The notes under the pieces: model-generated
Databases searched by the model: none
What the model saw: the letters and a program-made list of their open reading frames with translations, nothing else
What the model was told of the DNA's origin: nothing
Assembly: GCA_015065785.1 (NCBI GenBank)
Contig: SVPR01000007.1
Coordinates: 35,634 to 99,633, forward strand
Source: Oscillospiraceae bacterium
GTDB taxonomy: Bacteria; Bacillota; Clostridia; Oscillospirales; Acutalibacteraceae
Direction: 5' to 3'
DNA length: 64,000 nt
Program-made: the position numbers and the translations under genes
Shown here: positions 20,218 to 63,868 of the stretch, one piece after another
Numbering within the stretch: position 1 is the first letter of the stretch
Layout of the letters: every line of letters begins with the position of its first letter

Positions 20218-20263
20218 AGTTCTATCATTTAAAGTTTTTCGTAAACTAAAAATGATAGAACTT
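20131..20263. repeat. direct repeat copy 1 (133 bp, identical to 20680-20812)
   Basis: Base-by-base visual comparison shows no mismatch over 133 bp. Similarity extends about 12 bp further left with 1 substitution and 1 indel. Confidence 0.85.
20218..20262 (-). terminator. conserved core hairpin of the composite element, copy 1
   Basis: Minus strand AAGTTCTATCATTTTTAGTTT-acgaa-AAACTTTAAATGATAGAACTT, followed by ATCTTTTGTTATTT. Confidence 0.7.
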
Positions 20264-20285
20264 ATTTATTTTCAGCGAAGCAATA

Positions 20286-20627
20286 CCTTCTTTGAAAAGA
20301 AGGGGGACCATTCTTCATATAAACTATATTCCATAATATTTTTCAAGCGTGTAGCAAAGTTATTTTCAAAATTTAAGTTAAAGCGGAATGGTGGAAAATT
20401 GATATAAAAATACGCTTTAGCGTACGGACACGAGGTTAATATTATTAATACTCCAACCTCATTGCCTTGCACTACCGTGCATTTTAATATCAATTCTCCA
20501 CCAAGCAAGCTTGGTCCCCCTCTTTTTCAAACGAGGTCGGGCTTCGCGTTCGGTTCACGCGTTGCACTCGATTGCTTTGTTAAAATAAAAACTACTCCCA
20601 CTACTGCGGGCGACCACAGGTCTGCCC
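20286..20627 (-). ncRNA. candidate structured RNA, unclassified (multi-stem domain in the unique core)
   Basis: Long-range stems 20297-20310/20512-20524 (13 bp, 1 bulge) and 20389-20405/20487-20503 (17 bp). The second encloses three perfect hairpins (20411-20424, 20432-20460, 20469-20480). Further hairpins at 20501-20514, 20532-20570, 20608-20627. The single non-Watson-Crick pair in the 17-bp stem is G-U only on the minus strand. Confidence 0.4.
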
Positions 20628-20637
20628 CTACCATTTT

Positions 20638-20669
20638 AGAATTAAGAATTAAGTATTAAGAATTAAGAA
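20638..20669. repeat. heptad block D (AGAATTA AGAATTA AGTATTA AGAATTA AGAA)
   Basis: Read directly. Followed by linker copy 20670-20695 and block C copy 20696-20723. Confidence 0.85.
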
Positions 20670-20679
20670 TTTCGGAACT

Positions 20680-20812
20680 GCGTTGGCAATTATAATTCGG
20701 AATGCGTAATGCGTAATTCGGAATTGAAGGGTCTGCGACGCAATTATAATTAAATAACAAAAGATAAGTTCTATCATTTAAAGTTTTTCGTAAACTAAAA
20801 ATGATAGAACTT
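20680..20812. repeat. direct repeat copy 2 (133 bp), offset 549 bp from copy 1
   Basis: Identical to 20131-20263. Confidence 0.85.
20767..20811 (-). terminator. conserved core hairpin of the composite element, copy 2
   Basis: Identical to 20218-20262. First terminator-like structure downstream of the GPH transporter gene (stop at 20927). Confidence 0.7.
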
Positions 20813-20852
20813 GTTGTTTTTATTGACTAATAATTATAATCAAGGCGAAGCC

Positions 20853-20893
20853 TTCCGAAATTCAGCACTCAGCATTCAGCACTCAGCATTACT
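20853..20893. repeat. heptad block B' (inverted copy of block B plus TTTCGGAA)
   Basis: The reverse complement AGTAATGCTGAGTGCTGAATGCTGAGTGCTGAATTTCGGAA aligns with 20089-20127, differing only at three A/G positions. Confidence 0.8.
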
Positions 20894-20926
20894 TTGGCTT
20901 ATCATTCAGCTCTTGAGCGAAGCGAA

Positions 20927-22471
20927 TTATTTTTTCCTTGCTGCAATTTCTGCAACCATCTCTGCCTGGCGTTTTTCTGTGAGCTTGTAGAAGAACATTG
21001 GAACTGCACAAGCGAACATACTGATAACACCTGCACCTACGAGCATATTCCAGAGAGTGTTTGCACCCTCTTGTGAAATGAAGCCTGTTTCAGCGTCGAT
21101 ACCTGCTGCTGCGAATGAAATAACACCGATAAATGCACCAACTGCCATACCGATTTTGTTGATAAGTGTCTGCATAGCAAAGCAAATACCCTCACCGCGT
21201 TCACCTGTTTTCCATTCAAGATAATCAACAGTATCACCAATCATTGCATAAGTAATAATGTTGTTAACACCTTGTGGAATACCGAGAAGAACAAGTGCAA
21301 TAGCACAAATTACTAATTTCCAAGGAGCGTCGTAACCAACGAAATACATAATTCCCATTACAACGCCACCGAAAATGTGAACTGCAACATAAGCCCATTT
21401 CTTTGTGAATTTCTTTGACATCCACGGAACGAGTAATGAAGCAACAAGACCGCCCGGAACAACAAGAAGTGTTATTAAACTATACATACCCTCATTCTGA
21501 AGAACATACTTTGCGAAATAAAGTCCGCCTGTGTATGTATAAACCATTCTCGCACCGCCGAGAATACCTGAAAGAACGATTAAAAGAAGCTCTTTATTTT
21601 TAAAGAGGAGCTTTAAGTTGTGACCAAGGCTTGGTGGGTTATCGTCTGCAGTGAAGCGTTCCTTTGTGTGCTTAAAGCCATAGAAGAACATTGGAACTGC
21701 TACAATAACAAGTACAACTGCACAAATGAAATATGTCATTTTAAGAGTGTCTGCATTTGCGAGCTCCTGACCTTTAATGACTGTACCAACAAAATTCTGA
21801 GCAACATCAGCAGTTACACCTTTATCAAGCATAATTTGTCCAATATCATCAACAGTATATTTATATTTTGAAGTAACAGCATTTGTAATAATAGGAACAA
21901 AAACAGTAACAATACCTGCACCTAATGTGCAAAGAAGACGGGTAATTGTAAGCATATTACCACGAACTACTGTGTCATTGGTCATACAGGTTGAAAGTCC
22001 CCAATAAGGAACATCTGCAACTGTGTAAACAACTGACCAGATAACATAGATAATTGCGATTATAATAAATGATGAGGTTGCTTTTGCCTGGAATGCAGGG
22101 AGGAAGCAAGCTAAAGTCATAATACCGATTGGAATTGCCATCCATTTAAGGTAAGGACGACATTTACCCCATTTAGTTCTTGTTCTGTCAACAATACTAC
22201 CCATAATAGGGTCATTAAATGCGTCAAAAATACGAGTACCGAGCATTAAATAAGCAACAGCCATTGAACCTGCAACAGAGCCTACTGTAACACCATCAGC
22301 ACCAAAAAGAAGCGCATCTGTTAAAAAGATTGTTAAATAGGAACCGATAATTGTACAAATAAAGTTCTGACCGAAGCCTGCTATACCGTAAGCAATGGCT
22401 TCTTTTGGTTGAAGGTTTCCGTCATTTGGTGTAGTGCCGTAAACCTTATGAAGTAAATCATTGATTTTCAT
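20927..22471 (-). CDS. GPH-family MFS sugar symporter
   Basis: 514 aa polytopic. FDAFNDPIMGSIVDRTRTKWGKCRPY signature loop. AAAGGTGA RBS. Confidence 0.8.
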   Translation of the reverse strand: MKINDLLHKVYGTTPNDGNLQPKEAIAYGIAGFGQNFICTIIGSYLTIFLTDALLFGADGVTVGSVAGSMAVAYLMLGTRIFDAFNDPIMGSIVDRTRTKWGKCRPYLKWMAIPIGIMTLACFLPAFQAKATSSFIIIAIIYVIWSVVYTVADVPYWGLSTCMTNDTVVRGNMLTITRLLCTLGAGIVTVFVPIITNAVTSKYKYTVDDIGQIMLDKGVTADVAQNFVGTVIKGQELANADTLKMTYFICAVVLVIVAVPMFFYGFKHTKERFTADDNPPSLGHNLKLLFKNKELLLIVLSGILGGARMVYTYTGGLYFAKYVLQNEGMYSLITLLVVPGGLVASLLVPWMSKKFTKKWAYVAVHIFGGVVMGIMYFVGYDAPWKLVICAIALVLLGIPQGVNNIITYAMIGDTVDYLEWKTGERGEGICFAMQTLINKIGMAVGAFIGVISFAAAGIDAETGFISQEGANTLWNMLVGAGVISMFACAVPMFFYKLTEKRQAEMVAEIAARKK

Positions 22472-36790: not shown

Positions 36791-39700
36791 TTAATTTGCA
36801 TTTGTTGTGCCGGGTTCTGTTGTCGGTTCAGTTGTCGGTGGAGTTGTCGGCTCTGTTGTCGGTGGAGTTGTCGGCTCTGTTGTCGGTGGAGTTGTCGGCT
36901 CAGTTGCTGGTGGAGTCGTCGGCTCTGTTGTTGGTGGGGTTGTCGGCTCTGTTGTTGGTGGGGTTGTTACTTCACCCTTACTGCTTTCAATAACTAAACC
37001 TTCACTTGCAACATAAGCACTTCTGACACTACCGTTTACTGTGCGGACTGTATAGCGATAAGTAACATCCTCTTTTACGCTTTTGTCAATCCAGGCAGAT
37101 TTTGTTTCTTTCGCTGTTCCCATAACTGTCCATGATGACCACTTGCCATCTTTGCCTAAAGTAGCTCTGTAAACTGTATAACCTTTTGATCCGGCAGCTT
37201 TAGTCCAGGAAACCTTTATTCCTGTCTGGACAGCTTCAAGAGAAACTGTCGGTGTAGCAAGATATAAGAGCTCACTACTTGCAGTATAAAGACTTCTGCT
37301 TTCACCATTCACTGCACGAACAGTATATTTATACTTAACATTGCTTACAGCCTTTTCATCTACATAAGATGTAGTTGTTACTGATTTTAATGTAGTCCAG
37401 CCTGACCACTTGCCAGATTTATATTCAGCACGATATACCGTGTATTTTGTTGCACCGCTGATCTTATTCCAGCTTACATTTACACCTTTAGCTGCATTTG
37501 CAATTTTCACAGTAGGAATACTGAGGAATACATTTGTATTAGAAGCAACATAGCTACTCTTATATTTACCGCTTATTGCTCTGACTGTATATCTATAGGT
37601 GCCACCGGATTTAACTGTTTTATCAGTAAATGTTTTTGCAGTTGCTTTTGCAGTACCAAGATTCACCCATTTTGACCACTTGCCATCTTTCAATTCAGAA
37701 CGATAAATTGTGTAACCTTGTGCACCATCAACTTGATTCCAGCTACCAGAAATTCCATTTGCAGCATTGGTTACCTTTAAAGTAGGTTGTGCAAGATAAA
37801 TAAGAGTATTTGAAGCCTTATAGGTACTTCTTACAGAACCACTTACTGCACGAAGAGTATATCTGTATTGGCTACCTGATTTAACTGTTTTATCAGTAAA
37901 TGACTTTGCAGTAGCCTTAGTAGTGCCAAGGTTTAACCAGCTTGACCACTTACCATTCTTATATTCAGAACGGTAAATTGTGTAGCCTGTTGCACCATCA
38001 ATAGCATTCCATGTACCTGTAATGCCTGCTGCAGCATTTGAAATTGTCAAGGTTGGCTGTTCAAGAAAAATCATTCCTGCAGAAGCAGTATATCCACTTC
38101 TTTCCTTGCCAACAACTGCACGAATTGTATATCTGTATGTTCCACCACATTTTGTTTTATCATCTAACCATGAATTCTTTGCAGACTCAGTAGTGCCAAG
38201 AATAATCCAGCTTGACCACTTACCATCCTTTAATTCAGCTCGATAAACAGTGTAACTGTCAGCATTCGCTATTTTGTTCCACTTGATTAAAAGTCCTGTT
38301 GTAGAAATTGTCAAAGTAACCTTTGGTGACTCAATAAATGTTAAGCCAGCACTTTCTTTATAAGAACTTCTGAAATCACCGTTTACTGCACGAACTGTAT
38401 ATCTATATTTAACACCGGTTTTTGTAGTTTTATCTACCCAGGAAGATGCAGTTTCTTTTGCTGTGCCACGAACTTTCCAAGCAGACCATTTTTTTGTTTT
38501 AGTGTTATATTCAGAAGAATAAACTGTGTAACCTTTAGCATCTTCGTCCTTAGTCCAGCTCACTTTAATGCCGTTTGAAGCATTTTCGATTGTAACCTTT
38601 GGTGTATCAAGTGTGAGCTTTTCAATAATTGCCTTTTCGAGCTCCGCTTTACATACAGTACATTCTTTATGTTGTGAGCCTGTTTCTGTAAATGTTGCTT
38701 TCTTATCTGTAATCCACTCACTCTTTGTATGACCTGTTGCCTTTAATACTTCACCTGTTTCAATTGTTTTCTTACAATCAGAACAATATAAATCACCTGA
38801 ATAGCCCTCTTCTGTACAAGTCGGGGCTTTAGCGTTTACTGTTTCAGTGTTTTTGTGATTATCAGCGTCAATCGGAACTACAGTAACCTCTGTTTTTCCA
38901 ACACAATCAGGATTTACACACGGCTTATATTCAGAGCCCTCTGCAATACATGTTGCTTCGTCAATTGTAAATTCGGTAGCCCATGTGTGAGTTTTACCGT
39001 CCGGTTGAACCTCTTCAGTTTCTTTGTAATCGCAATCACCGTTCTGACAGAACTTTGCAATTTCACCTTTTACAGTACACTTTACTGGAACTGTAATTTC
39101 CCAACCGCCTAAATTATGAGAAACACCGTCCGCTTTAATTACTTCTGTTACTGAATGTGTGCAACCATCATTAAGACATTTTTGTACTTTTTCGCCATCG
39201 GTAACACAAGTTGCAGGAGTTACAATTTCCCAATCAGCGCTCATATTGTGGGCATCCTTGTCAATAGGAAGCACTTCTTCTACTTTGTAGTCACAGCCGT
39301 TCAAGCAAGTTGCAACTTTTTTACCCTCTGCAACACAGGTAGCAGGAATAACACTCCATCCACCTAAATTATGCGCATTTTCATCAACAGGAATTGAATC
39401 TGTTTGTGTCTGACCGCAACCATTTGCACATTCTTTAGTTTTTACGCCCTCTGCATTACAAGTCGCAGGAGTTGTTACAACCCAATCATTGGACCAGTCG
39501 TGAGTTTTACCATCTGCTTTAAGAGTATCAGTTACCTTGTATTCGCAACCATTATTCTGGCAATATCTTACCAAAACACCATCTTTTATGCAGTTTTGTG
39601 CTTCTAAAACCTCAAAACCGCCTAATGTATGAGCATTTTCGTCAATTTCAGTTTCTCTTGTAATCACTTCTTCACAAAGAGTACATTCACCTGATTCTAC

Positions 39701-41818
39701 ACCCTTTGTAACACAAGTTGCAGGAGTTGTTTCTGTCCATTGAGTTATTTCGTGATTTTCAGCATCCAATTCGCCATAAGGATTTTTACAAATTTCACAA
39801 ATAGCCTTAGCAACACAAGTTGCAGTACCACCTGTGTGGTCATCTTCACCATGCTCTTCTATTGTAAGAGTACCATTTACATAAGTTATTTCATAGTTAG
39901 CACCCGCATCTGCAGCTGAAGCTACAATATCGTATGTGCCATTAGTTTCAGTATCTGTTGCAGTTGTGGTTAATTCCGGTTCCAATGTTAATTCATCTTC
40001 ACCAATCAAGCCCTTAACTGTATATTCTGTAAATTCCGGCATTTCAGCGTACTGTGCAATTGTTTTGTCACCGGCTGTAATAGTAAGAGGAGCTTTAGTA
40101 ATAGCAACAGTTGTTTCAAAAGTTACTGTTTCTAAAGTATAGTTTGCTACATTTTCACCTGTAAGAACAAAATCAGTTACTATAACTGTTTTATCATTGC
40201 CTACATTAGCATCCTCTGAATTTGCTACAAGCTTATCTAAATCAATTTTAACAATTTCAGAAGGAATGATACCATTTAATGATACTTCTGATATTTTAAT
40301 CGCAGTTGTTCCGTCGTATGTGCGACTTGTTGCAGTTGCACTTACTACTGAAAGAATTGCTTTTTCAATCGTATAAGTTTTAGTTACTGTACCTGTGTAG
40401 TTACCTTTACCTGTAATTACAACTGTAATTTCACCTGAATTTATGAAATCTTCTGTTGCTGTTTCACCGCGTTTATATTCTACTGTGTAATCGGTATCGA
40501 GAGTTAATCCATCAACAGTAACAGTTGGTTTTTGTTCTGCACCATTATAGGTAACATTCTCTGATAATGTTGCCATTTCATCAGTGATAGCTTTTTGCCC
40601 AATAGTTACAGTAACAGGGCCTGCAGCTTCAACATCGTTATAGTTTTCATTACCTACAACTCTGTAATACACATTATAAGTACCTGCATCTGTAGCAGCA
40701 GGAACAGTTGTGCTCCATTCAGCATCTTCGGATTCCCCTAATTTGTACTCAATTGTACCATTAGTAGCAGTACCAGCTGCTACAAGATTCTGTTCTTCGC
40801 CTGTATAAACTAAATTTTCAATTGCTGTCGGTGCGGTTAAAACTGTTGAATCAGCTTTAGTTACATTTACAGTGAATTCTGTAGCTGACGGTGCTTCGTT
40901 AACAGGTGATCCAACATAAGCTTCACCCTGAGGGTTATAAGAAACAGTATAGCTGTATTCACCTACACTCAATGTATTTAAATATGAAGCGTTAAGTGTA
41001 ATTTTATTGTTTTCTGTATCTACTGTGTAATCATCGCTATCAAGCTGTGCTTCACCACATTCAATAGCTTCTACAGTATTACCATTAAATGTTACACTTA
41101 TTTCTTTATCAGTATTTTCATTATAAGTGTACTCAATAGTTTGATTTTCTGATACTGAATCACTGTAAAGAACAATACCATCACTACTGATATATGTTAC
41201 ATTACCAACATTATCAGTAATTTTTGCATAAATTACATTTTTAGAGTCAGCATTGAGTGAAACTGCTCCACCATTTTCAATGGTCTGCCACTCAATAATT
41301 TCAGACATATCAGAAATTTGCTCGGCAGAAACATAATATTCAACAGAAGCAACACCACTACCCTCTGCATCATCAGCAGTAATAGTTAATGTATTTGCTT
41401 CTTTAAAGAACAACGCAAAGCTTATTGTATCAAGAAGTGTTGACCAGTTGTTGCTTTCACCAAGTTTAATTAAACCTGTTGGATAAACTGAATCTATCTG
41501 AACATCAGAAATAGTGATAATATCTGATACTGCATCGTCAGACAACCTTTTTACATAAAAGCTTTTAGAACTGTCAGCTTCAAATGTTAAGCTTTCACTC
41601 CAATCACCATCCGGAGTGGTTGAAAGCGCATAACCGTCTGCAGCAGTAACTGTCAAGCTCCTTGCCCATGTTTCATACTCTGATGTTTTTTCCAGTGTGT
41701 ACATATCAGGATCATCCAGATAACCTGAATCACCTTCTGCACTCGCAATTATAGGTGTTGAAAAGCATACGCCTATAACAAATATGCATGATAAAAATAA
41801 ACTTAAAAATCTTTTCAT
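36791..41818 (-). CDS. giant secreted adhesin-like protein: Ig/MBG-like repeats, 10 His-Cys3 modules, 6 Fn3-like modules, (TTEPTTPP)n tail
   Basis: ATG 41818 after AAAGGAAG. Signal peptide MKRFLSLFLSCIFVIGVCFSTPIIASA. YTGEEQ/YNGAEQ/RTYDGTT...NYxL adhesin-type repeats (about 39860-41000), Cys-rich region 38620-39860, Fn3-like modules 37010-38620. Confidence 0.85.
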   Translation of the reverse strand: MKRFLSLFLSCIFVIGVCFSTPIIASAEGDSGYLDDPDMYTLEKTSEYETWARSLTVTAADGYALSTTPDGDWSESLTFEADSSKSFYVKRLSDDAVSDIITISDVQIDSVYPTGLIKLGESNNWSTLLDTISFALFFKEANTLTITADDAEGSGVASVEYYVSAEQISDMSEIIEWQTIENGGAVSLNADSKNVIYAKITDNVGNVTYISSDGIVLYSDSVSENQTIEYTYNENTDKEISVTFNGNTVEAIECGEAQLDSDDYTVDTENNKITLNASYLNTLSVGEYSYTVSYNPQGEAYVGSPVNEAPSATEFTVNVTKADSTVLTAPTAIENLVYTGEEQNLVAAGTATNGTIEYKLGESEDAEWSTTVPAATDAGTYNVYYRVVGNENYNDVEAAGPVTVTIGQKAITDEMATLSENVTYNGAEQKPTVTVDGLTLDTDYTVEYKRGETATEDFINSGEITVVITGKGNYTGTVTKTYTIEKAILSVVSATATSRTYDGTTAIKISEVSLNGIIPSEIVKIDLDKLVANSEDANVGNDKTVIVTDFVLTGENVANYTLETVTFETTVAITKAPLTITAGDKTIAQYAEMPEFTEYTVKGLIGEDELTLEPELTTTATDTETNGTYDIVASAADAGANYEITYVNGTLTIEEHGEDDHTGGTATCVAKAICEICKNPYGELDAENHEITQWTETTPATCVTKGVESGECTLCEEVITRETEIDENAHTLGGFEVLEAQNCIKDGVLVRYCQNNGCEYKVTDTLKADGKTHDWSNDWVVTTPATCNAEGVKTKECANGCGQTQTDSIPVDENAHNLGGWSVIPATCVAEGKKVATCLNGCDYKVEEVLPIDKDAHNMSADWEIVTPATCVTDGEKVQKCLNDGCTHSVTEVIKADGVSHNLGGWEITVPVKCTVKGEIAKFCQNGDCDYKETEEVQPDGKTHTWATEFTIDEATCIAEGSEYKPCVNPDCVGKTEVTVVPIDADNHKNTETVNAKAPTCTEEGYSGDLYCSDCKKTIETGEVLKATGHTKSEWITDKKATFTETGSQHKECTVCKAELEKAIIEKLTLDTPKVTIENASNGIKVSWTKDEDAKGYTVYSSEYNTKTKKWSAWKVRGTAKETASSWVDKTTKTGVKYRYTVRAVNGDFRSSYKESAGLTFIESPKVTLTISTTGLLIKWNKIANADSYTVYRAELKDGKWSSWIILGTTESAKNSWLDDKTKCGGTYRYTIRAVVGKERSGYTASAGMIFLEQPTLTISNAAAGITGTWNAIDGATGYTIYRSEYKNGKWSSWLNLGTTKATAKSFTDKTVKSGSQYRYTLRAVSGSVRSTYKASNTLIYLAQPTLKVTNAANGISGSWNQVDGAQGYTIYRSELKDGKWSKWVNLGTAKATAKTFTDKTVKSGGTYRYTVRAISGKYKSSYVASNTNVFLSIPTVKIANAAKGVNVSWNKISGATKYTVYRAEYKSGKWSGWTTLKSVTTTSYVDEKAVSNVKYKYTVRAVNGESRSLYTASSELLYLATPTVSLEAVQTGIKVSWTKAAGSKGYTVYRATLGKDGKWSSWTVMGTAKETKSAWIDKSVKEDVTYRYTVRTVNGSVRSAYVASEGLVIESSKGEVTTPPTTEPTTPPTTEPTTPPATEPTTPPTTEPTTPPTTEPTTPPTTEPTTEPGTTNAN
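36811..36968 (-). repeat. 24-nt in-frame tandem repeat (about 6.5 units) encoding TTEPTTPP
   Basis: Plus strand ggctctgttgtcggtggagttgtc reiterated with few substitutions. Confidence 0.85.
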
Positions 41819-41866
41819 CAAAACACTTCCTTTTTATTTATTTTATAGCAATAATTATACATTATA

Positions 41867-41895
41867 ATTGTACCGAATTTTGTGTGTAAAGTCAA
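41867..41895 (-). promoter_or_regulatory. sigma-A promoter of 36791-41818
   Basis: Minus strand TTGACT (41890-41895), 17-nt spacer, TACAAT (41867-41872), immediately downstream of the composite element. Confidence 0.55.
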
Positions 41896-41905
41896 TATGT
41901 TTTTT

Positions 41906-42025
41906 AGTGGTCAGTGGTCAGTTATTAAGTATAAAAGTTCTGCCATTCTTAGTTTACAAAAAACTAAAAATGACAGAACAAACTATTTTTATATCCAGCG
42001 ACTGACCACTGACTTACTGACCACT
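41906..42025 (-). repeat. complete composite element: arm (GTGGTCA heptads) / core hairpin / inverted arm
   Basis: Arms 41906-41923 (AGTGGTCAGTGGTCAGTT) and 42001-42025 (ACTGACCACTGACTTACTGACCACT) are complementary apart from one extra unit. The right arm overlaps the argF stop codon (42024-42026). Confidence 0.8.
41937..41979 (-). terminator. conserved core hairpin, copy 3; terminator of the arg operon
   Basis: Minus strand GTTCTGTCATTTTTAGTTT-tttgt-AAACTAAGAATGGCAGAAC followed by TTTTATAC. The two non-Watson-Crick positions are G-U on the minus strand and C-A on the plus strand. Confidence 0.75.
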
Positions 42026-43010
42026 ATTTAAGCGTAGCTAACATAACTGCCTTAATTGTATGCATTCTGTTCTCTGCCTCCTGGAATACAACTGATTGCT
42101 CACTTTCAAAAACATCGTCAGTAACCTCAACTGCAGTTCTGTTGAACTTATCGCAGATTTTTTTACCGATTTCTGTCTTTTTGTCGTGATAAGATGGAAG
42201 ACAGTGCATAAAGATTGTGTCTTTGCCTGTGTGTGACATTAACTCTTTATTTACTTGATATTTAGAAAGGTCGTTAATTCTTTCTGCCCATACAAGCTCA
42301 GGCTCACCCATTGAAACCCAGACATCTGTGTAAACAACATCTGCGTTTTTAACTGCAGAAACAGGGTCCTCCGAGAAAGTGAGTGTAGCACCTGTTGTCT
42401 TTGCAATTTTTTTGCATTCGCCAACTAAATCTGTATCAGGAAAATATTTTTTAGGTGCACAGGCAACAAAGTTCATACCCATTTTTGCACAGCCCACCAT
42501 TAAAGAGTTACCCATATTATATCTTGCATCGCCTAAATAAACGAAGTTAATGCCTTTTAAGTAGCCAAATTTTTCTTTAATTGTAAGAAAATCTGCAAGA
42601 ATCTGTGTAGGGTGAAATTCATTTGTAAGGCCGTTCCATACAGGAACAGAAGAATATCTTGCCAATTCTTCAACAACCTCTTGCCCGTAGCCACGATATT
42701 CAATTCCGTCATAAATAGAAGAAAGCACTCTTGCTGTGTCAGCAATACTTTCTTTTCTGCCTATCTGAGAAGCAGACGGGTCAAGGTAAGTAACGCCCAT
42801 ACCCAAATCTCTTGCCGCAACCTCGAAGCTACAACGGGTTCTTGTGCTTGTTTTTTCAAATATAAGAGCAATATTTTTACCCTTTAAAACCTCGTGAGAA
42901 ACATTATTTTTCTTTTGCTCTTTAAGCTCTGCCGCAAGGTCTATAAGATATTCAATTTCTTCGCTTGTGTAGTCAAGCAACTTTAAAAAATCTCTACCTG
43001 CTAAATTCAT
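42024..43010 (-). CDS. argF: ornithine carbamoyltransferase
   Basis: [17 protein letters not shown] motifs. 328 aa. Confidence 0.93.
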
Positions 43011-50342: not shown

Positions 50343-52427
50343 GTGGATAAGAAAACACTCTTGGCTGTTGATGATGCCGAAATTAATAGAAAAATATTAT
50401 CAAAGCTTTTCTCAAATGAGTTTGATGTTTTAGAAGCTTGTAATGGTAAAGAAGCTATTGATGTGCTTAATAAAAAAGAAGGTAATGTTGACATTATCAT
50501 TCTTGATATTATTATGCCTGATTACGATGGCTTTTATTTTCTTGAAAAAATCAAGGCTACTGATTATGCTGATGTGCCTGTTGTTATTTCCACAACAGAT
50601 ACTTCCCCTGAGGCTGAAGAAAGACTTTTAGACCTCGGTGCTACTGACTTGATTTACAAGCCATTCAATCCACAGAATGCAGTAAAAAAGGTTAAGGCTA
50701 TTCTTGCCCGTCATGAAGCAGAGAATCAAAAAATTAAAATAACAGCTTCATCGTTAGAAGAACGCCACACAATCGTTATGCGTCAAACTAACACTTTCTC
50801 AGCAGAATACGATTTTGTGACAAAAAAAATATCTATTGACCCTGAATATTCTTCTTATGTTCACAGAGATTTCTGTAACATTGATATTTCTGACCCATCT
50901 ACTATGATTGGTCTTATTTACAGACCTGATTTAGATGCAGTTGTTTCATTCCTTAATGTTGGCGAAATCCGCGAAACAACCCAGCGTTACATAAACATAA
51001 GAATTCTCACAAACAACAACATTTACGAATGGTTCAGATTAGCTCTTACAGTACACATTGAAGATAGTGTTAAAACAAAAGCAATCATTACCTTTAACAA
51101 CATCAACAGTGAAATGGAAGCTATTAAAAAGCTTGAAATATTCTCTTCTGTTGACAGACTTACAAAAATTCCTAACAGAAATACATTTGTTGAAAAAACA
51201 CAGGGAATTATTGAAGAAAACAAAGACACAAAATTTGCAATAGTCCGTTTTGACATTGAAAGCTTTAAAATTATAAATCAGCTTTTCGGCACTTATGAGG
51301 GTGACTCAATACTCAAATTTATTGCAGTTAAGCTTCAGGAAATTATTGAGCCAATCAAAAACGGTACATATTGCCGTATTACCTCTGATTTATTTGCATT
51401 TTCAATTCCTTATGAAAATGAGGATTTATTGACTTCTGTTATTGATACATTAGTTGCTGCAGTTAAAATGTATCCACTTAATTTTGATATTACACTTTCA
51501 TTTGGTATTTACATTGCAGAAAATTCTGAATACTCTGTAAGACATATGCTTGACAGAGCTGGCGTTGCTCAGAAATCAACTAAAAACAATTACAAAACTC
51601 ACATTTCTTATTTTGACGAAGCACTTCGTGAACAAGAAGAAATTGAAATCACTATTGTTTCAGAAATGAAGCGTGCTCTCGAAAATGGTGAATTCAAAAT
51701 TTATCTTCAACCAAAATGTGATATGAGAACAGGTAAAATCATCGGTTCAGAAGCTCTTGTTCGTTGGCTTCACCCTGAAAAAGGTCTTATTTCACCAAGA
51801 AGCTTTATTCCGATTTTTGAAAATAACGGTTTCATTACAGAGCTTGACTATTATATATTTGAAACTGTTTCAAAACAGCTGAATGAGTGGCGTAATGACG
51901 GTGTTCCGATTCTCCCTGTTTCTGTGAATGTTTCAAGAGCAGACCTTTATGACCCTTACCTCTTCCCTAACATCGTAAAAATTGTTGATAAATATAACAT
52001 TCCGCACGAGTATATTGAATTCGAGCTTACTGAAAGCTCATTTATTTCAGATAACCACAAGTTAGTTGAACTCACCTACAACCTTCAAAAAGCCGGCTTC
52101 CATGTCCTTATGGATGACTTCGGCAGTGGTTACTCTTCACTTAACTCACTTAAAGATATTAAAGTAGATGTTTTAAAAATTGACATCAACTTCTTACCGA
52201 CCTCAACCTCTGATGAAAGAGCAAGTAAAATTCTTGCATCTGTTGTTTCAATGGCAAACGCACTTGACCTTAAGGTTGTTGTTGAGGGTGTTGAAACCCG
52301 TGAACAGGCAGATTTCCTTATAAGCATTGGAGCATATGAAGCACAGGGTTACTACTTCTTCAGACCAATGCCAGTTGAAGATTATGAAAAAGCTTTAAAA
52401 GCACAATTTGAAGCAAGTCAGAAATAA
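50343..52427 (+). CDS. response-regulator receiver / degenerate GGDEF / EAL phosphodiesterase
   Basis: GTG 50343 sits 8 nt after GGAGG; the track TTG at 50328 contains the RBS. REC (LLAVDDAEINR...DIIILDIIMPDYDG...KP). GGDEF site reads RITSDLF. EAL motifs intact (SEALVRW, ELTES, DDFGSGYSSL, KIDINF, EGVET, QGYYF). Confidence 0.85.
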   Translation: MDKKTLLAVDDAEINRKILSKLFSNEFDVLEACNGKEAIDVLNKKEGNVDIIILDIIMPDYDGFYFLEKIKATDYADVPVVISTTDTSPEAEERLLDLGATDLIYKPFNPQNAVKKVKAILARHEAENQKIKITASSLEERHTIVMRQTNTFSAEYDFVTKKISIDPEYSSYVHRDFCNIDISDPSTMIGLIYRPDLDAVVSFLNVGEIRETTQRYINIRILTNNNIYEWFRLALTVHIEDSVKTKAIITFNNINSEMEAIKKLEIFSSVDRLTKIPNRNTFVEKTQGIIEENKDTKFAIVRFDIESFKIINQLFGTYEGDSILKFIAVKLQEIIEPIKNGTYCRITSDLFAFSIPYENEDLLTSVIDTLVAAVKMYPLNFDITLSFGIYIAENSEYSVRHMLDRAGVAQKSTKNNYKTHISYFDEALREQEEIEITIVSEMKRALENGEFKIYLQPKCDMRTGKIIGSEALVRWLHPEKGLISPRSFIPIFENNGFITELDYYIFETVSKQLNEWRNDGVPILPVSVNVSRADLYDPYLFPNIVKIVDKYNIPHEYIEFELTESSFISDNHKLVELTYNLQKAGFHVLMDDFGSGYSSLNSLKDIKVDVLKIDINFLPTSTSDERASKILASVVSMANALDLKVVVEGVETREQADFLISIGAYEAQGYYFFRPMPVEDYEKALKAQFEASQK

Positions 52428-52473
52428 TAAACCTAAACTAAGGTATCCACCTTAATAATAGGAGATTTTTAAA

Positions 52474-52839
52474 ATGAATGAAAACATTTTAATTGTAGAT
52501 GATGCAGAATTTTCAAGAGGTGTTATGAAACAGGCGTTACTTAATGCCGGTTTTGATAATATCGTTGAAGCTACAACTGCTGATGAAGCACGAAAAATTT
52601 TAGCAACACAACAAATTGATTTAACAATTCTTGATATAATGCTTCCTGATAGTAATGACTTAAAGCTTCTTCACGAGCTTTTAGCCATTAAAAAGGATGC
52701 AAGAATTGTTGTTATTTCAGCAATAAACAAGCCCGAAATAACACGCGAGGCTCTTTTAACAGGTGCTCGTGGATTTATAACAAAACCATTCAACGAAACA
52801 GACTTTTTATGTAAAGTAAGAATGGCTTTAGAAGATTAA
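52474..52839 (+). CDS. single-domain CheY-like response regulator
   Basis: 121 aa. ILIVDDAEF, DLTILDIMLPD, ITKP motifs. Confidence 0.85.
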   Translation: MNENILIVDDAEFSRGVMKQALLNAGFDNIVEATTADEARKILATQQIDLTILDIMLPDSNDLKLLHELLAIKKDARIVVISAINKPEITREALLTGARGFITKPFNETDFLCKVRMALED

Positions 52840-52847
52840 AGCAAACA

Positions 52848-52893
52848 TTTTAGGGAACAAAACAAGTTTAAAAAACTTGTTTTGTTCCCTAAA
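52848..52893. terminator. bidirectional intrinsic terminator
   Basis: TTTAGGGAACAAAACAAGTT-taaa-AAACTTGTTTTGTTCCCTAAA followed by TTTTTT. Overlaps the spoVAC stop. Confidence 0.85.
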
Positions 52894-53326
52894 TTTTTTC
52901 TATTACCCAATAAATCAACCCATAAAGACTGGCGGCACCACAGCCGTAAACTATTACAGGACCTGCTAAATTGAACATTTTGGCACCTGTCCCTAAAATG
53001 TGGCCCTCTGCTTTAAATTCAAGTGCAGGCGACACAACTGAATTTGCAAAGCCTGTTATTGGCACAAATGTCCCAGCACCTGCAACCTTTGCAATATTGT
53101 CAAAAACGCCTACTATAGTTAATATGGCGGTTATTGCTATAAGTGTTACAGATACAAGGGTTTTCGCCTCAGTTATAGTCATAGATGTCATTAAATAAAG
53201 TGTGCGTAAAGCCTGACCTAAACAGCTTATTCCACCACCGAATAAAAATGCATTTATCAAATCTTTTTTCAAAGGGGATTTTGGCGTTATTTTTTCTACT
53301 AATTTACTATATTGATAATCTCTCAT
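52889..53326 (-). CDS. spoVAC: stage V sporulation protein AC-like membrane protein
   Basis: 145 aa. YSKLVEKITPKSPLKKDLINAFLFGGGISCLGQ N-terminus and four hydrophobic segments typical of SpoVAC/SpoVAEB. Confidence 0.7.
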   Translation of the reverse strand: MRDYQYSKLVEKITPKSPLKKDLINAFLFGGGISCLGQALRTLYLMTSMTITEAKTLVSVTLIAITAILTIVGVFDNIAKVAGAGTFVPITGFANSVVSPALEFKAEGHILGTGAKMFNLAGPVIVYGCGAASLYGLIYWVIEKI

Positions 53327-53357
53327 AAACTCACCAACTTTAGTTTATGTAAAATTT

Positions 53358-53399
53358 ATGAGCATATTCAAATTTTTAAATAAATTTGAATATGCTCAT
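53358..53399 (-). terminator. intrinsic terminator after the YabE-like gene
   Basis: ATGAGCATATTCAAATTT-ttaaata-AAATTTGAATATGCTCAT. Confidence 0.7.
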
Positions 53400-53403
53400 T
53401 TTG

Positions 53404-54660
53404 TTATAAAATATAAATAATTATATCTCTACGACCCCAGTTAACACATTCCTGTTCAGTATCCATATAAAGGTCAACTGTCCAGTCTGTGCTATTTATA
53501 AATCCACCTGTGTCGGCAGCTATACAATAGCCATAAACTCTTTTACCGTCTGCGGAAACAATATACATCTCTGTGCCATAAGGAATTTCGTTAGGATCAA
53601 CTGCAATATAACCTGTTCTTACCTTTTCACCTGTTGAGGTAGTACCACCGGGAATACAGTAAGCAGTTGCTTTTGCGTTAATTGCTTTTTTGTAGTTTGT
53701 AGGAACTCCGTTTGCACCTATATTAACATAAGATGGAACTGCAAGGTCACTTATAGGTGTTGAAGATGGTGTTGAAGATGGTTTTATATTTGCTTTTGTG
53801 CCAACCTCAAGAACCTTGTCAACGGGTCTTTTTGTAATTTTTGTTTCCTTAACCACTGAATCAATAAGAACTCCGTCAATATAACTGTCCTTATAAATAA
53901 TCTCTCTTATACCGTTCTGGCCTTCAACCTTTACTCTGGTTTTACCTGCCGCTAAAGCATCGGTATAAACATATTTTGTGGTGTAAGAAAGTGTTTCGGT
54001 AACTGTGTAGGTTTTTGTTGTTACCTTAATAACTTCAATTTCAATGCCGTTCATAAGCGGTGTGCTTTCTGACGGCTTTGTGTAGTCATCGTCACTGATA
54101 TTAAGGTCAACCTTACTTATAGCGTCGCCTACTGTTTTACCTGAAACAGTTCTCTCGTAAACTGCGCCGTTTATTTTAATCTTAATATCATACGCACCAT
54201 AAATTTCAACTTCCATTCCCTCTGAGAGTGGTTCATCGAGTGAATAGTTTACTGATGCACCTTCGGGAAGCTTGATTTCTGCCGCTTTAATAGCGTCAGC
54301 AACTGTGCCCGAAGCAAATACTGCGTAAGTTGAGCCATCATAATTTGTAATGGAAACGCTTACGCCTCTGTTGATTGTGATTACTGAGCCATCCTCACCA
54401 GCTTTAAACTCTGTAAGGTCTAATTTGTCGCCGTATGCTTCGTTAAACAAAACATCTTGTTCTTCAAGAATTTTCTCAGCATCGGTTTCTGATGTTGAAA
54501 GGCTAATAACCTTTTCACCGTCTTTTATTACTAAATCGTAAGATTTTGACGGCTTAGCGAATGCAGTAACTGAACCGAAAAATAATACTACCACCATAAG
54601 AAGCGCTAACTTCCTGTTAGGTGAGTGTACTGCTACTTCGCCTATTTTTCTGAATGTCAT
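53404..54660 (-). CDS. YabE-like cell-wall protein (DUF348 repeats, G5 domain, 3D domain)
   Basis: ATG 54660 sits 9 nt after AAGGAG. N-terminal TM anchor. G5 region (GKTRVKVEGQNGIREIIYKD...VLEVGTK). C-terminal 3D domain (IAVDPNEIPYGT...AADTGGFI...VDLYM). Confidence 0.8.
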   Translation of the reverse strand: MTFRKIGEVAVHSPNRKLALLMVVVLFFGSVTAFAKPSKSYDLVIKDGEKVISLSTSETDAEKILEEQDVLFNEAYGDKLDLTEFKAGEDGSVITINRGVSVSITNYDGSTYAVFASGTVADAIKAAEIKLPEGASVNYSLDEPLSEGMEVEIYGAYDIKIKINGAVYERTVSGKTVGDAISKVDLNISDDDYTKPSESTPLMNGIEIEVIKVTTKTYTVTETLSYTTKYVYTDALAAGKTRVKVEGQNGIREIIYKDSYIDGVLIDSVVKETKITKRPVDKVLEVGTKANIKPSSTPSSTPISDLAVPSYVNIGANGVPTNYKKAINAKATAYCIPGGTTSTGEKVRTGYIAVDPNEIPYGTEMYIVSADGKRVYGYCIAADTGGFINSTDWTVDLYMDTEQECVNWGRRDIIIYIL

Positions 54661-54824
54661 GGTATAAATACTCCTTAAACTAGCAATTCCCATAAATATT
54701 GTTTTTGCAGGAATTACCGTTAATAGATATTCTTGTTCACAATTAGAAGCTGAGGCGTCAATCTCAACTTAAAACTATAAGCAAAAACATCCGTTTTTCT
54801 TCCGTTTATCCTATGGCAAGGTGT

Positions 54825-54852
54825 ATTATACCCAATTTTTTGGTATTGTCAA
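54825..54852 (-). promoter_or_regulatory. consensus sigma-A promoter of the YabE-like gene
   Basis: Minus strand TTGACA (54847-54852), 16-nt spacer, TATAAT (54825-54830). Implies a 5' UTR of about 155 nt. Confidence 0.65.
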
Positions 54853-55114
54853 ATAATTTCAGACCATCTGATTTGTCGACATTGCACAAATCAAGTGTTT
54901 AAAATCGACCTTTCTCCCCTTGATATTGTATTTTACTCAACACCTGTCGTATTTTTTATGTGCGTTTTTTGTAGGAAATGCAAAAATTACAATTTGTAAC
55001 TTTTTCAAATCCGGATTAATCAAAATATAGTGTAATTTTTTAAAATTTATTGACATATACACAATTTAAAGCAATAATATTATATACAATATTATTAAAT
55101 TTAAAGGACACACT

Positions 55115-56431
55115 ATGAGAATTGAAATACCGGATAAAATCAACAATATAATAAATCGCTTTCAGAAAAACGGATATGAGGCTTACTGTGTAGGTGGTAG
55201 TATCCGTGACAGCATAATGGGAGCTAAAGCTTACGATTGGGATATTACCACCTCGGCACTCCCCGCTGAAACAAAAGAGCTTTTTAAAGATGAAAAAATA
55301 ATAGAAACAGGAATTAAGCACGGAACTGTTTCAATTATAAAGGACCACGAAGCAATTGAAGTAACAACTTTCAGAATAGACGGTGAATATTCTGACAACC
55401 GTCACCCGGAGCAAGTATCGTTCACAAGAAGTCTCAAGGAGGATTTAAAAAGGCGTGACTTTACTGTAAATGCTTTAGCATATTCTCATTCAAGTGGTTT
55501 AATTGATTTATATGGCGGTATAAGTGATATTGAAAATAAAATAATAAGAACTGTAGGCGATGCCGAAAAAAGATTTAATGAAGACGGACTTCGGATTATG
55601 AGAGCGTTGCGCTTTGCTTCTACTTTAAATTTCACAATAGAAGAAGAAACTAAAAAAGCAATTCACGAGCAAAAAGAGCTTTTAAAGAATATTTCAGCAG
55701 AAAGAATTGCAGTTGAGCTCAACAAATTGCTTCTTGGTAATAATGTATTTAATATTTTAACTGAATTTGCAGATGTTTTCTCTGTTATAATTCCGGAAAT
55801 TGAGCCTTGCATTGACTTTAAACAATATGGCAAAAAACACGCCTACGATGTGTGGACTCATATCTGCCACACAGTTGACACAATTCCTGCAGACAGAATT
55901 TTAAGGCTCACTATGCTTTTGCACGATTTAGGAAAAGTACCGACTCACAAATTAAACGAAAATGGCGACAGTACATTTAAAAACCACGCAACAGTAGGTG
56001 GCGAAATGGCAAAAGAAATTTTAACCCGCTTACGCTATGACAAAAAGACTATAAACAAGGTTTCGTTTTTAGTCAGTCACCACGATTTTGAGCCACCTGA
56101 AACAAAAATTGAATTAAAGAAAAAAATGAAAATATTAACTGCCGAAGATGTAAGAACTCTTCTGACAATTAAAAAAAGTGACCGCGGTGCACTCTCAGAA
56201 AGCTTCAGAGATATAAGTAAAGAATCTTCACAAGTTTTAGTATGGCTTAAAGAAATTGAAGAAAATAACGAATGCGTTACCTTAGCTCAATTAAAGGTAA
56301 CAGGGAGCGACTTAATAAAACTTGGCTTTAAAAACGAAGAAATAGGGCAGAAATTAGATTATCTTTTAGACAATGTAATTGAAGAAAAAGCAGAAAACAG
56401 TAAAACGGCACTTTTATCATTACTATCATAG
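55115..56431 (+). CDS. cca: CCA-adding tRNA nucleotidyltransferase with HD domain
   Basis: CVGGSIRDSIMG...DWDITT head domain, RDFTVNA, LLHDLGK HD motif. Confidence 0.88.
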   Translation: MRIEIPDKINNIINRFQKNGYEAYCVGGSIRDSIMGAKAYDWDITTSALPAETKELFKDEKIIETGIKHGTVSIIKDHEAIEVTTFRIDGEYSDNRHPEQVSFTRSLKEDLKRRDFTVNALAYSHSSGLIDLYGGISDIENKIIRTVGDAEKRFNEDGLRIMRALRFASTLNFTIEEETKKAIHEQKELLKNISAERIAVELNKLLLGNNVFNILTEFADVFSVIIPEIEPCIDFKQYGKKHAYDVWTHICHTVDTIPADRILRLTMLLHDLGKVPTHKLNENGDSTFKNHATVGGEMAKEILTRLRYDKKTINKVSFLVSHHDFEPPETKIELKKKMKILTAEDVRTLLTIKKSDRGALSESFRDISKESSQVLVWLKEIEENNECVTLAQLKVTGSDLIKLGFKNEEIGQKLDYLLDNVIEEKAENSKTALLSLLS

Positions 56432-63865: not shown

Positions 63866-63868
63866 TTT

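Follow-up and report, generated by a model that had tools for sequence, protein, structure and literature searches.

Correia elements of Neisseria and the pneumococcal BOX, RUP, and SPRITE elements are palindromic or modular multicopy repeats of intergenic DNA, mostly about 100 to 200 nt long, with BOX having the modular form A-Bn-C. They form stable hairpins and can be terminators or change mRNA stability. Tandem arrays of 7-nt units are known from heterocystous cyanobacteria, where the STRR units are CCCCAGT, TTGGTCA, and CAACAGT, and small hairpin elements lie inside heptamer arrays of Nostoc. The cyanobacterial STRR repeats were reportedly described by Mazel in 1990, and the small dispersed repeats nested in STRR arrays are said to have been described by Elhai in 2008. 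The foldback (FB) transposons of Drosophila have long inverted arms of variable short tandem subrepeats around a central segment. The REP palindrome of Proteobacteria has a conserved GTAG or CGTC tetranucleotide at its foot (PMC3733652). Heptads of the GGGAATC type occur in Xanthomonas and Nostoc, and some of the Xanthomonas arrays are convergent inverted pairs (PMC4692102); TAACTGA repeats occur upstream of start codons in Beggiatoaceae, Cyanobacteria, and Bacteroidetes (PMC4679880). Small repeats that carry terminators are treated in two reviews (PMC3184786 and PMC10969869).

The repeat considered here was found in a window of 64,000 nt, the whole stretch of DNA that was analyzed (contig SVPR01000007.1 of assembly GCA_015065785.1, positions 35,634 to 99,633 of the forward strand), from an Oscillospiraceae bacterium of the Acutalibacteraceae. 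We gathered 61 copies from at least 12 species of gut MAGs (Acutalibacteraceae, Oscillospiraceae, and Clostridia) and from metagenomes, in a sample biased by the exact arm pattern that retrieved most of them. Like the RAYT-associated REP, BIME, and REPIN elements, it is a short, imperfect, extragenic palindrome that lies after gene ends in many copies and in either orientation, forms mosaics with other short motifs, often occurs in inverted pairs giving a long hairpin, is conserved above neutral DNA, and has a proposed role in termination or mRNA 3'-end protection. However, those elements are GC-rich, whereas this repeat is AT-rich and has a Firmicute host, and the GTAG/CGTC tag is absent from its cores, which start with GTTC, ATTC, or ATCC. 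It also differs in having a single central hairpin with mirror-image modules and phase-locked heptad arrays. No RAYT or IS200-like gene was seen, in what was a weak test: an IS608 TnpA query gave no tblastn match with an E value of ≤1, and only about 0.34 Mb of the DNA searched came from the host lineage.

Terminal inverted repeats are shared with MITEs, the mirror image being evident at the level of modules in all copies and at the level of sequence in 9 of 26 copies and in the window, but there is no direct repeat at the unit borders that would represent a target-site duplication. Heptanucleotide arrays elsewhere are likewise intergenic, with several types of 7-nt unit per genome (period 7 was assigned here by TRF) and with turnover of length and sequence between relatives. 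Unlike them, the arrays described here are short (about four units), have an A-R-T-N4 skeleton, are phase-locked to a conserved box, are aimed at a terminator-like core, and begin at stop codons, in another phylum and with other sequences; GTGGTCA, from the window, resembles the STRR unit TTGGTCA at 6 of 7 positions and nothing more, and the hosts are Clostridia MAGs. There is no sequence relation to Correia, BOX, RUP, or SPRITE elements, and neither a TA target duplication nor an IHF site was seen; those elements lack heptad periodicity, whereas here the center is conserved and the arms are variable. Bidirectional intrinsic terminators of convergent genes have the same upstream A-run, hairpin, and downstream T-run between converging stop codons, but they are conserved in shape only, whereas this core is a near-invariant 43 nt, including a TT.TT mismatch, and has extra modules. 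The palindromic architecture is also that of the FB transposons, but these are eukaryotic, kilobase sized, and without a terminator core. Judged from sequence, the repeat is best read as a new REP/BIME-like or foldback-MITE-like mosaic repeat that forms a bidirectional terminator.

A first-pass annotation of the window had described four hairpins, 7-nt arrays, and inverted arms, all of which are present at the positions claimed. With both arms counted and up to three mismatches allowed, the window contains 7 matches to the core arm, compared with 0.08 expected from shuffles. Convincing period-7 arrays occur in the window at 20034-20176, 20638-20725, 20860-20890, 41906-41922, 42001-42025, and 63868-63900 and at no other loci; the remaining period-7 rows have 2 to 3 copies and low scores. 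The features of locus 1 (near 20 kb), the argF locus, and locus 3 (near 64 kb) are as follows.

20034 to 20218, minus strand: three stacked outward 56-nt units, each consisting of TTATAATTGC, a hairpin, and TTCCGAAA plus four heptads; heptad types CCGAATT/ACGCATT, TCAGCAC, and CTGCATT, with TCAGCAC the inverted partner of 20860-20890
20219 to 20261, minus strand: second (duplicated) core hairpin, with core arm GTTCTATCATTTTTAGTTT at 20243-20261, inside a direct repeat (20130-20272 = 20679-20821, 98% identity)
20275 to 20637, no strand: unrelated repeats between the duplicated copies, of which 20275-20550 is a MITE-like element of about 276 bp whose terminal inverted repeats are imperfect, and 20551-20637 is a repeat forming a GC-rich hairpin
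20638 to 20767, minus strand: outward modules past the core, with a T-rich spacer, ATTATAAT with mini-hairpin GTC-GCA-GAC, and further on heptads AATTCCG/AATTACG, a second unit TATAATTGCCAACGCAGTTCCGAAA, and four CTTAATT heptads
20768 to 20810, minus strand: core hairpin of canonical sequence, which includes the conserved internal mismatch TT.TT; core arm GTTCTATCATTTTTAGTTT at 20792-20810
20811 to 20859, minus strand: inward module with box TTCGGAA, mini-hairpin AAGGC-TTC-GCCTT (20842-20854), ATTATAAT (20833-20840), and A-rich spacer TATTAGTCAATAAAAACAACAA
20860 to 20890, minus strand: four gene-proximal heptads (AATGCTG/AGTGCTG), downstream of a transporter gene (stop codon at 20927-20929)
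41861 to 41895, minus strand: sigma-70-like promoter TTGACT-17-TACAAT of a gene for a 1676-aa surface protein, 10 nt past the element
41906 to 41923, minus strand: distal arm AACTGACCACTGACCACT, the proximal arm inverted minus one unit
41924 to 41936, minus strand: T-rich tail and spacer TTTTATACTTAAT, 3' of the core
41937 to 41979, minus strand: core hairpin with a 5-nt loop and 19 pairs, two of which are G-U on this strand, then TTTTATACTT; core arm GTTCTGTCATTTTTAGTTT at 41961-41979
41980 to 42000, minus strand: A-rich spacer CGCTGGATATAAAAATAGTTT, 5' of the core, which is the opposite-strand U-run
42001 to 42026, minus strand: gene-proximal arm, a 7/8-nt array reading TAG TGGTCAG TAAGTCAG TGGTCAGT, whose first unit, AGTGGTC, takes its first two bases from the argF stop codon TAG (42024-42026)
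63868 to 63900, plus strand: heptads TCAGGAA/TCAGAAA, beginning 2 nt past the stop codon TAA (63863-63865) of a 607-aa gene
63901 to 63920, plus strand: mini-hairpin GC-TTC-GC and A-rich spacer
63921 to 63967, plus strand: core hairpin of the ATCC...GGAT subfamily with three G-U pairs on this strand; core arm ATCCTATCATTTTTAGTTG at 63921-63939

The copies at 20.2 and 20.8 kb are not independent, because both derive from a duplicated 143-nt segment (549 nt apart, 98% identity). The inverted arms at this locus are complementary at 94% over 36 nt (20092-20127 versus 20853-20888), and the full arms (20089-20127 and 20853-20893) are 725 nt apart, with the duplication and the MITE-like insert in between. 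At the argF locus, 41906-41923 pairs with 42001-42025 in the fold of 41896-42030 (-52.6 kcal/mol; z = -8.8), and both of the non-Watson-Crick pairs in the 41937-41979 stem are G-U on the minus strand, as had been noted. In the core of locus 3, stem pairs 1 and 3 have changed in a compensatory manner, and the far side of this element lies beyond the window end.

The 61 copies form a true repeat family of the kind anticipated, in which the core hairpin is conserved and the arms vary from copy to copy. Each arm consists, reading inward, of about four heptads (A-R-T-N4), the box AATTTCGG in phase with them, a GC mini-hairpin, ATTATAAT, and an A-rich spacer; then comes the 43-nt core, an AT-rich hairpin flanked by an A-run and, on the opposite side, by a T-run; the mirror image of the arm follows. 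The box is A-R-T-TTCGG and shares the 7-nt phase of the heptads, since A-R-T is found at -2, -9, -16, -23, and -30 from the box in 32, 28, 23, 24, and 22 of 35 modules, respectively, and at the remaining offsets in about 0 to 2 of 35. A stricter tabulation places the fourth, outermost heptad in 25 of 28 modules, with the pattern ending one unit farther out. Units observed include AATGCAG, AGTGCTG, AATTCGG, AATTGAA, AATTAAG, and AGTGGTC, and arrays without a box have 2 to 8 units. The A-R-T register reads inward in 64 of 83 arrays, compared with 19 of 83 on the other strand, and the strand bias changes across the core (G > C in 42 of 44 arrays on the left and C > G in 35 of 38 on the right). 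Period-7/8 arrays are concentrated around cores: 77 of 102 lie within 300 nt of one, a zone that makes up 11.6% of the sequence. The mini-hairpin has a GC stem of 3 to 6 bp, which varies yet stays paired, and its triloop reads TNC (or GNA on the opposite strand); the same slot is filled by at least seven different stems, and mini-hairpins of at least 4 bp are present in 47 of 70 modules, compared with 19% of shuffles.

The first-pass annotation had called this arrangement the opposite of a MITE, which is half right: the center is conserved and the arms vary, but the heptads keep a fixed A-R-T-N4 skeleton, number, and phase. It had also overlooked the modules between the heptads and the core, that is, the box TTTCGGAA, the GC mini-hairpin, ATTATAAT, and the A/T-rich spacers. 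We considered ATTATAAT as an inward promoter and rejected it, as a promoter scan gave no flag.

The repeat family is real and, it seems, undescribed. In keeping with the earlier remark that no described family has this architecture, no Rfam family, plasmid record, phage record, or paper matched it. Rfam 15 gave a single match in the whole window (Gut-1, at 16555-16626) and none for the repeat, and the best score in the region 19900-21000 was 28 bits, with thresholds of 47 to 63. Scans of viral contigs with a symmetric core pattern and with a box-ATTATAAT pattern returned one true copy, on a contig with a bacterial-looking gene, along with chance matches; a loose 15-mer scan of viral contigs gave only chance matches among the matches listed.

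Every core is downstream of at least one gene end, at a median stop-to-core distance of 82 nt, and none of the 61 copies is inside a credible ORF (one is under a doubtful 111-aa ORF). Cores are present in 22 of 38 convergent gaps, 15 of 172 co-directional gaps, and 0 of 28 divergent gaps (odds ratio, 17; P = 1e-11). The first heptad overlaps the stop codon or lies within 5 nt of it in 31 of 51 arms. The 64-kb window contains 4 copies, and additional unselected copies occur about every 50 kb of the loci examined. The core stems are AT-rich (-14 to -23 kcal/mol), and T-runs, defined as at least 5 T in the 8 nt after the stem, are found on both strands in 58 of 61 copies, compared with a background of 3%. 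The two-strand T-runs, the gene-end location, and the absence from divergent gaps uphold the description of the core as terminator-like. A stem-loop followed by a U-rich run, at a site downstream of a stop codon, is the arrangement of an intrinsic (Rho-independent) terminator, and the core, which reads as a hairpin plus U-run on both strands, looks like the bidirectional form; it probably does terminate transcription. The 41937-41979 copy has a terminator-like flag (19 pairs and then TTTTATACTT) and is followed by the promoter-like site TTGACT-17-TACAAT. Two loci (L202 and L213) already have a GC-rich terminator of canonical form upstream of the repeat, and thus termination is not the sole reason for the presence of the repeat.

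Between unrelated loci (L127 versus L148 and L227), similarity is confined to a unit of about 200 nt, heptads included, with 96 to 97% identity, and units are found nested, stacked, or duplicated. At the orthologous loci L127 and L138, the central 183 nt are inverted and 96% identical, whereas the coding flanks are 82 to 86% identical the other way round. A second candidate core inversion (L216 versus L228) was ruled out as an orientation artifact. Of the orthologs L217 and L157, only one has kept its arrays intact; those of the other have decayed. The base preceding the outermost heptad is variable. The orthologous loci, unit borders, and DNA searched yielded neither a transposase nor a target-site duplication nor an empty site, and a flank-pair search for empty sites found every orthologous pair filled. 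Nine contigs that encode the identical argF protein, all from the species of the window, are without differences across the argF locus, and thus present-day mobility is not seen there; nevertheless, we infer present or recent mobility of the unit. The core sequence is near-invariant across species, which is not required of a terminator conserved for structure only and points to a sequence-specific partner. Slippage alone does not explain the fixed number of about four heptads, their fixed phase, or their start at the stop codon.

We give about even weight to the proposal that this mirror-symmetric, modular intergenic repeat is specific to the lineage of gut Acutalibacteraceae and their relatives among the Clostridia, serves as a bidirectional terminator, and is copied as palindromic DNA. 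New loci would receive a copy of the whole palindrome of about 200 nt as one DNA unit, which may be nested or stacked and the center of which may be inverted; the heptad arrays would change by slippage and later decay. Arms would be complementary within a copy as parts of one palindromic DNA unit (an inverted duplication), and no selection for an RNA stem would be needed to account for this.

The first-pass annotation had instead proposed that the arms form a long RNA stem that clamps the terminator, with complementarity maintained by selection and perhaps with processing by RNase III. The arms do pair in the window copies, and heptad types match in inverted form on the two sides in 9 of 26 copies, compared with 11% of mismatched pairs (P = 0.0015), and as direct repeats in 0 of 26. 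This TRF-array test replaced a whole-flank k-mer complementarity test (P = 0.11) that was confounded by oppositely oriented orthologs and by the conserved modules. In the other 17 of the 26 two-armed copies, the heptad types of the two sides differ, which speaks against the clamp. At L141 and L238, which have a common convergent gap and a homologous core, the arms are unrelated yet self-complementary within each locus, which fits a selected stem but also a palindrome at the DNA level; in addition, wherever the stems at 41937-41979 and 63921-63967 depart from Watson-Crick pairing, the sense strand has G-U, and a read-through transcript would fold into a hairpin of about 100 bp for which a fail-safe role is conceivable. 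However, because the 3' arm is downstream of the U-run of the core, a core-terminated transcript would be without it, and the two strands fold equally well (z = -8.8 and -8.9), as is expected of a DNA palindrome. Array length is altered on one arm with no mirror change on the other between L230 and L233, the center is inverted between L127 and L138, and core polarity relative to gene direction in co-directional gaps is 8 versus 7, such that the regularity of reading in the direction of the upstream gene, seen in the window, fails outside it. The excess of G-U pairs on the forward strand (22 versus 7) and that of stability (46 versus 13) are not counted as evidence, as core orientation was set by T-richness, which biases both; the G-U excess is further confounded by the search pattern. 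Since the whole unit, heptads included, recurs at unrelated loci, the complementary arms are better seen as inherited in a palindromic DNA unit, and the RNA clamp is very unlikely.

Alternatively, the unit might be purely selfish foldback- or MITE-like DNA for which gene ends and convergent gaps are the least harmful insertion sites, the hairpin and T-runs being by-products of an AT-rich palindrome. The near-identical units at unrelated loci, their nesting, stacking, and duplication, the decay at L217/L157, the random core orientation, and the canonical terminators upstream at L202 and L213 are all consistent with this. Less easily accommodated are the A-run and T-run that flank 58 of the 61 cores, the lack of any other hairpin plus T-run after the three genes of the window that precede a core, the position of the element hard against stop codons and promoters, which leaves no DNA to spare, orthologous copies far better conserved than coding flanks, and the failure to find a transposase or target duplication, and we consider purely selfish DNA possible but rather unlikely. 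The heptads might also be periodic binding sites for an oligomeric protein, making the composite a regulated 3'-end device. HutP reads UAG-N4 beside a terminator, and omega of pSM19035 is a ribbon-helix-helix protein that reads 7-bp heptads; the protein could be of the HutP kind, binding RNA at a 3-nt motif that recurs every 7 nt, or an omega-like DNA-binding one. The strict phase of A-R-T-N4 over about four units and the box, with any N4, in most of the 28 to 35 modules, the inward polarity of the arrays, the first unit at or near the stop codon, and the implication of a sequence-specific partner from core conservation across species favor such sites. Against them, no candidate protein emerged, the skeleton carries little information (3 of 7 positions fixed), arrays are decayed in some orthologs, box-less arrays range from 2 to 8 units, and distal arrays have the wrong sense for an RNA-binding protein in co-directional gaps; this explanation is unlikely. 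We know of no case of sequence-specific DNA uptake in Firmicutes, and it is extremely improbable that the core arm is an uptake-type signal whose inverted pairs double as terminators, as DUS and USS do in Neisseria and Pasteurellaceae. Sequence conservation of a terminator stem across species would suit such a signal, and Kingsford et al. (2007; PMC1852404) reportedly tie sequence-conserved terminator stems to uptake signals; yet the motif occurs about once per 16 to 50 kb and in intergenic DNA only, compared with about once per kb of coding and noncoding DNA for DUS/USS, and, unlike DUS/USS-like motifs, it is never single (the 64 kb contain only 4 occurrences, each a pair in intergenic DNA).

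This repeat adds a well-defined, unusually structured family to the poorly known, mostly uncultured gut Clostridia, in whose genomes much of the gene-end DNA is apparently assembled from a few reusable modules. Its variable, complementary arms mimic RNA covariation but are better explained by palindromic DNA inheritance, which calls for caution in covariation-based RNA discovery. The four-heptad, phase-locked arms at stop codons go beyond current ideas of slippage and offer a handle for finding a binding partner. More speculatively, and with a rather low probability, there may be a lineage-wide system, as yet undescribed, in which the repeat is the visible half and the other half is either a factor for the core and heptads or new mobilization machinery. 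If so, the factor would be a periodic RNA- or DNA-binding oligomer that recognizes the near-invariant core and the phase-locked A-R-T-N4 heptads at stop codons and that sets termination, read-through, or mRNA 3'-end fate for dozens of genes; the machinery would lay down, or need, 7-nt-periodic arms. The repeats could also be lineage markers. The repeat is found at several contig ends, indicating that MAG assemblies are broken there.

A pattern search for the arms of the core, an AT-rich hairpin of 43 nt, returned seven matches in the window (both arms of each hairpin counted) against 0.08 expected, which bears out the four core hairpins of the first-pass annotation:

20219-20261: core hairpin, conserved T-rich arm on the minus strand
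20768-20810: core hairpin, conserved T-rich arm on the minus strand
41937-41979 (argF locus): core hairpin, conserved T-rich arm on the minus strand
63921-63967: core hairpin, plus strand

The inverted arms that it reported are also real. Those at 20092-20127 and 20853-20888 are 94% complementary over 36 nt, and at argF the arm at 41906-41923 pairs with 42001-42025 in a predicted fold of -52.6 kcal/mol (z = -8.8). The observation is thus confirmed, and the interpretation placed on it is supported in part. Tandem Repeats Finder gave convincing period-7 arrays in the window only at the three core loci. The copies at 20.2 and 20.8 kb should not be treated as independent, since both lie within a 143-nt segment duplicated 549 nt apart with 98% identity, and an unrelated MITE-like insert separates them. 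This insert (20275-20550, about 276 bp) ends in imperfect inverted repeats about 36 nt long (GCGAAGC..CCTTCTTTGAAAAGAAGGGGGACCA and the complementary sequence) and sits between the 143-nt direct repeats at 20130-20272 and 20679-20821. Its end also occurs at the contig end of L206, one of the loci collected from other MAGs and metagenomes, and related sequence flanks L171 and L199. The adjoining GC-rich hairpin repeat at 20551-20637 (..GGTAGGGGCAGACC..GGTCGCCCGCAGTAGTGGGAG..) recurs in other MAGs of the clade (flanks of L132 and L149) and has no match in Rfam.

GC content is low across the window (34 to 40%), and its genes are of Firmicute type. A Gut-1 RNA (RF01706) at 16555-16626 on the plus strand, scoring 53.6 bits against a gathering score of 50, fits an origin in a gut Firmicute. 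When one genome per species was scanned with an exact 18-mer, the matches listed included at least 12 species-level MAGs with several copies each; matches in other phyla are due to chance. The carriers, which bear the names Acutalibacteraceae, Oscillospiraceae, or Clostridia, are from guts, including those of ruminants. A strand-symmetric pattern recovered 22 further true copies from metagenomes, and fuzzy matching added unselected copies at the loci already collected, some of them from an ATCC...GGAT subfamily that also takes in the window copy at 63921. The analysis set comprised 61 copies. No similar repeat was found in the plasmid and phage collections searched, and no Rfam family matches it; one copy lies on a so-called viral contig, which carries a bacterial-looking gene.

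The core and heptads noted in the first pass are both present, but that description was incomplete. Toward the core, each arm consists of about four heptads, a box (A-R-T-TTCGG(AA)), a GC mini-hairpin, (T)GATTATAAT, and an A-rich spacer, and the far side is the mirror image. The heptads share the skeleton A-R-T-N4: of 83 arrays, 64 show the A-R-T register when read inward and 19 when the opposite strand is read. They are phase-locked to the box: A-R-T falls at offsets -2, -9, -16, -23, and -30 in 32, 28, 23, 24, and 22 of 35 modules, is nearly absent at other offsets, and ends after the fourth unit. Arrays have G>C left of the core (42/44) and C>G right of it (35/38), independently of locus orientation. 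Between constant flanks, no fewer than seven mini-hairpin stems occur (GTCC/GGAC, ACGC/GCGT, GGC/GCC, ACAC/GTGT, ATGC/GCAT, GCC/GGC, and GTC/GAC) with TNC loops, read as GNA on the other strand, and the orthologs L202 and L213 show a compensatory change from ACAC/GTGT to ACGC/GCGT. Heptad-box-hairpin-ATTATAA units can be stacked, with three in tandem at 20034-20202 (56-nt period), and can carry nested inserts, as in L227 and L220. There (L227, ~140-190; L220, ~830-880), a 47-nt insert of two small hairpins (AAAGCCGAT-AAA-ATCGGCTTT and CGAAACGCA-ACT-GCGTTTCG) separates the mini-hairpin of the arm module from its ATTATAAT, which suggests that very small elements nest at yet another level.

Of the gaps defined by ORFs of at least 90 aa, 22 of 38 convergent, 15 of 172 co-directional, and none of 28 divergent ones contain a core (convergent enrichment, odds ratio 17, P = 1e-11). 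In 58 of 61 copies, the stem has an A-run before it and a T-run after it, compared with 3% of random positions, so that the element looks like a terminator from either side. A terminator scan flags the copy at 41937-41979, within 45 nt after which lies a promoter-like TTGACT-17-TACAAT of the next gene. No other hairpin followed by a T-run was found downstream of the three window genes that precede a core. L202 and L213 have a canonical GC-rich terminator (GAGGTCGC-GAAA-GCGACCT plus T-run) about 110 nt from the core, with the stop codon on one side and the repeat on the other; thus, the repeat is sometimes redundant as the terminator of that gene. The arms take up the gap completely. Of 51 gene-facing arms, 31 have a first heptad that overlaps the stop codon or begins within 5 nt of it, most often at offset -2, where the last two bases of TAA or TAG are the A-R of the first unit. 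The argF stop codon (TAG, 42024-42026) is part of an AGTGGTC unit, and in eight cases the ORF extends 8 to 23 nt into the array.

The first-pass annotation read the arms as a long stem clamping the terminator and took their complementarity as covariation-like evidence for it. Matching arms are a real tendency, although a minority pattern: 9 of 26 two-armed copies carry the same heptad type inverted on both sides, against 11% of mismatched left-right pairs (P = 0.0015), and none of the 26 carries it as a direct repeat. Several results speak against an RNA stem. The distal arm lies beyond the U-run of the core, and 41896-42030 folds as well on the plus strand as on the minus (-48.1 and -52.6 kcal/mol, z of about -8.8 for each). 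L233 carries an array of eight units, against three to four in its ortholog L230, and the opposite arm shows no mirrored change. Nor does the T-rich core arm follow the direction of the upstream gene in general; in co-directional gaps, it is sense eight times and antisense seven times, and the four-of-four polarity within the window is therefore coincidental. GC skew turns from negative to positive at ~52000-56000, which may mark a replication origin or terminus, and the long ORFs examined lie on the minus strand in 17-44 kb and on the plus strand at 62-64 kb; core polarity, gene strand, and replication strand are thus confounded within the window.

Comparisons of loci instead indicate that complementary arms arrive jointly, as parts of one palindromic unit. 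In the orthologous loci L127 and L138, the flanks are 82 to 86% identical in one relative orientation and the central 183 nt are 96% identical in the other; the center is inverted between the inverted arrays. L127 shares with L148 and L227 only a unit of about 200 nt, heptads included (96 to 97% identity), between unrelated flanks. L141 and L238 lie in one and the same convergent gap, between genes that are 76 to 82% identical, and their cores are homologous. The arms are unrelated, consisting of GTCAGTNA octads at one locus and of AGTGCTG heptads and modules at the other, and are self-complementary within each. Partial pairing extends even to unlike heptad types, since the A-R-T skeleton is common to all of them and stands in mirror orientation.

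Conservation of the palindromic element exceeds that of its coding flanks, and in the core it extends to sequence as well as shape, which implies a sequence-specific partner or very recent spread. The core is near-invariant down to its TT.TT internal mismatch; compensatory changes affect only three stem pairs, and these changes define the subfamilies. No transposase was found by tblastn at E ≤ 1 with an approximate IS608 TnpA query in the DNA searched, of which ~0.34 Mb is from the host lineage (a weak test), no target duplication at the copies examined, and no empty site among the orthologous loci compared; the argF locus is identical in nine contigs of the species from which the window comes. 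Phase-locked arrays of four units at stop codons are contrary to the expectation for free slippage. Arrays have decayed in some orthologs (L157 versus L217), and those lacking the box vary in unit number. Within the same MAGs, heptad arrays of this general kind are also found beside hairpins or repeats that are unrelated to the core:

L122, 1226-1258: heptad array
L141, 3870-3899: heptad array
L155, 4163-4194: heptad array
L231, 438-489: heptad array
L234, 722-948: heptad array

Heptad arms are thus not confined to this core, and gene ends in this lineage may carry the arm modules as a general trait.

Intergenic heptanucleotide arrays (STRR) occur in cyanobacteria. Such arrays are also known from Xanthomonas and Nostoc, some as convergent inverted pairs, with slippage as the proposed cause (PMC4692102), and as TAACTGA arrays from Beggiatoaceae, Cyanobacteria, and Bacteroidetes (PMC4679880). 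Unlike the repeat described here, none of these is linked to a conserved terminator-like core, phased by a box, or placed at stop codons. The architecture resembles that of foldback elements. The repeat lacks the target duplication of a MITE and the GTAG or CGTC head of a REP (PMC3733652). In its presumed function it comes closest to a bidirectional intrinsic terminator on a mosaic repeat of the REP/BIME/REPIN or BOX/Correia kind. The literature searched gave no description of this family; it is a new variant within mosaic palindromic intergenic repeats and terminators, set apart by its unusual periodic arms, and would be of greater interest if a dedicated binding or mobilizing factor exists.

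The window also encodes a surface protein of 1,676 aa (36791-41821, minus strand). Its gene contains domain repeats about 270 nt long, and a 12/24-nt tandem repeat codes for a Thr/Pro-rich linker. Two stretches noted within it are 36813-36968 and 37604-38256, and domain repeats of a related kind are found at 9.9-15.8 kb and 25.6-28.2 kb.
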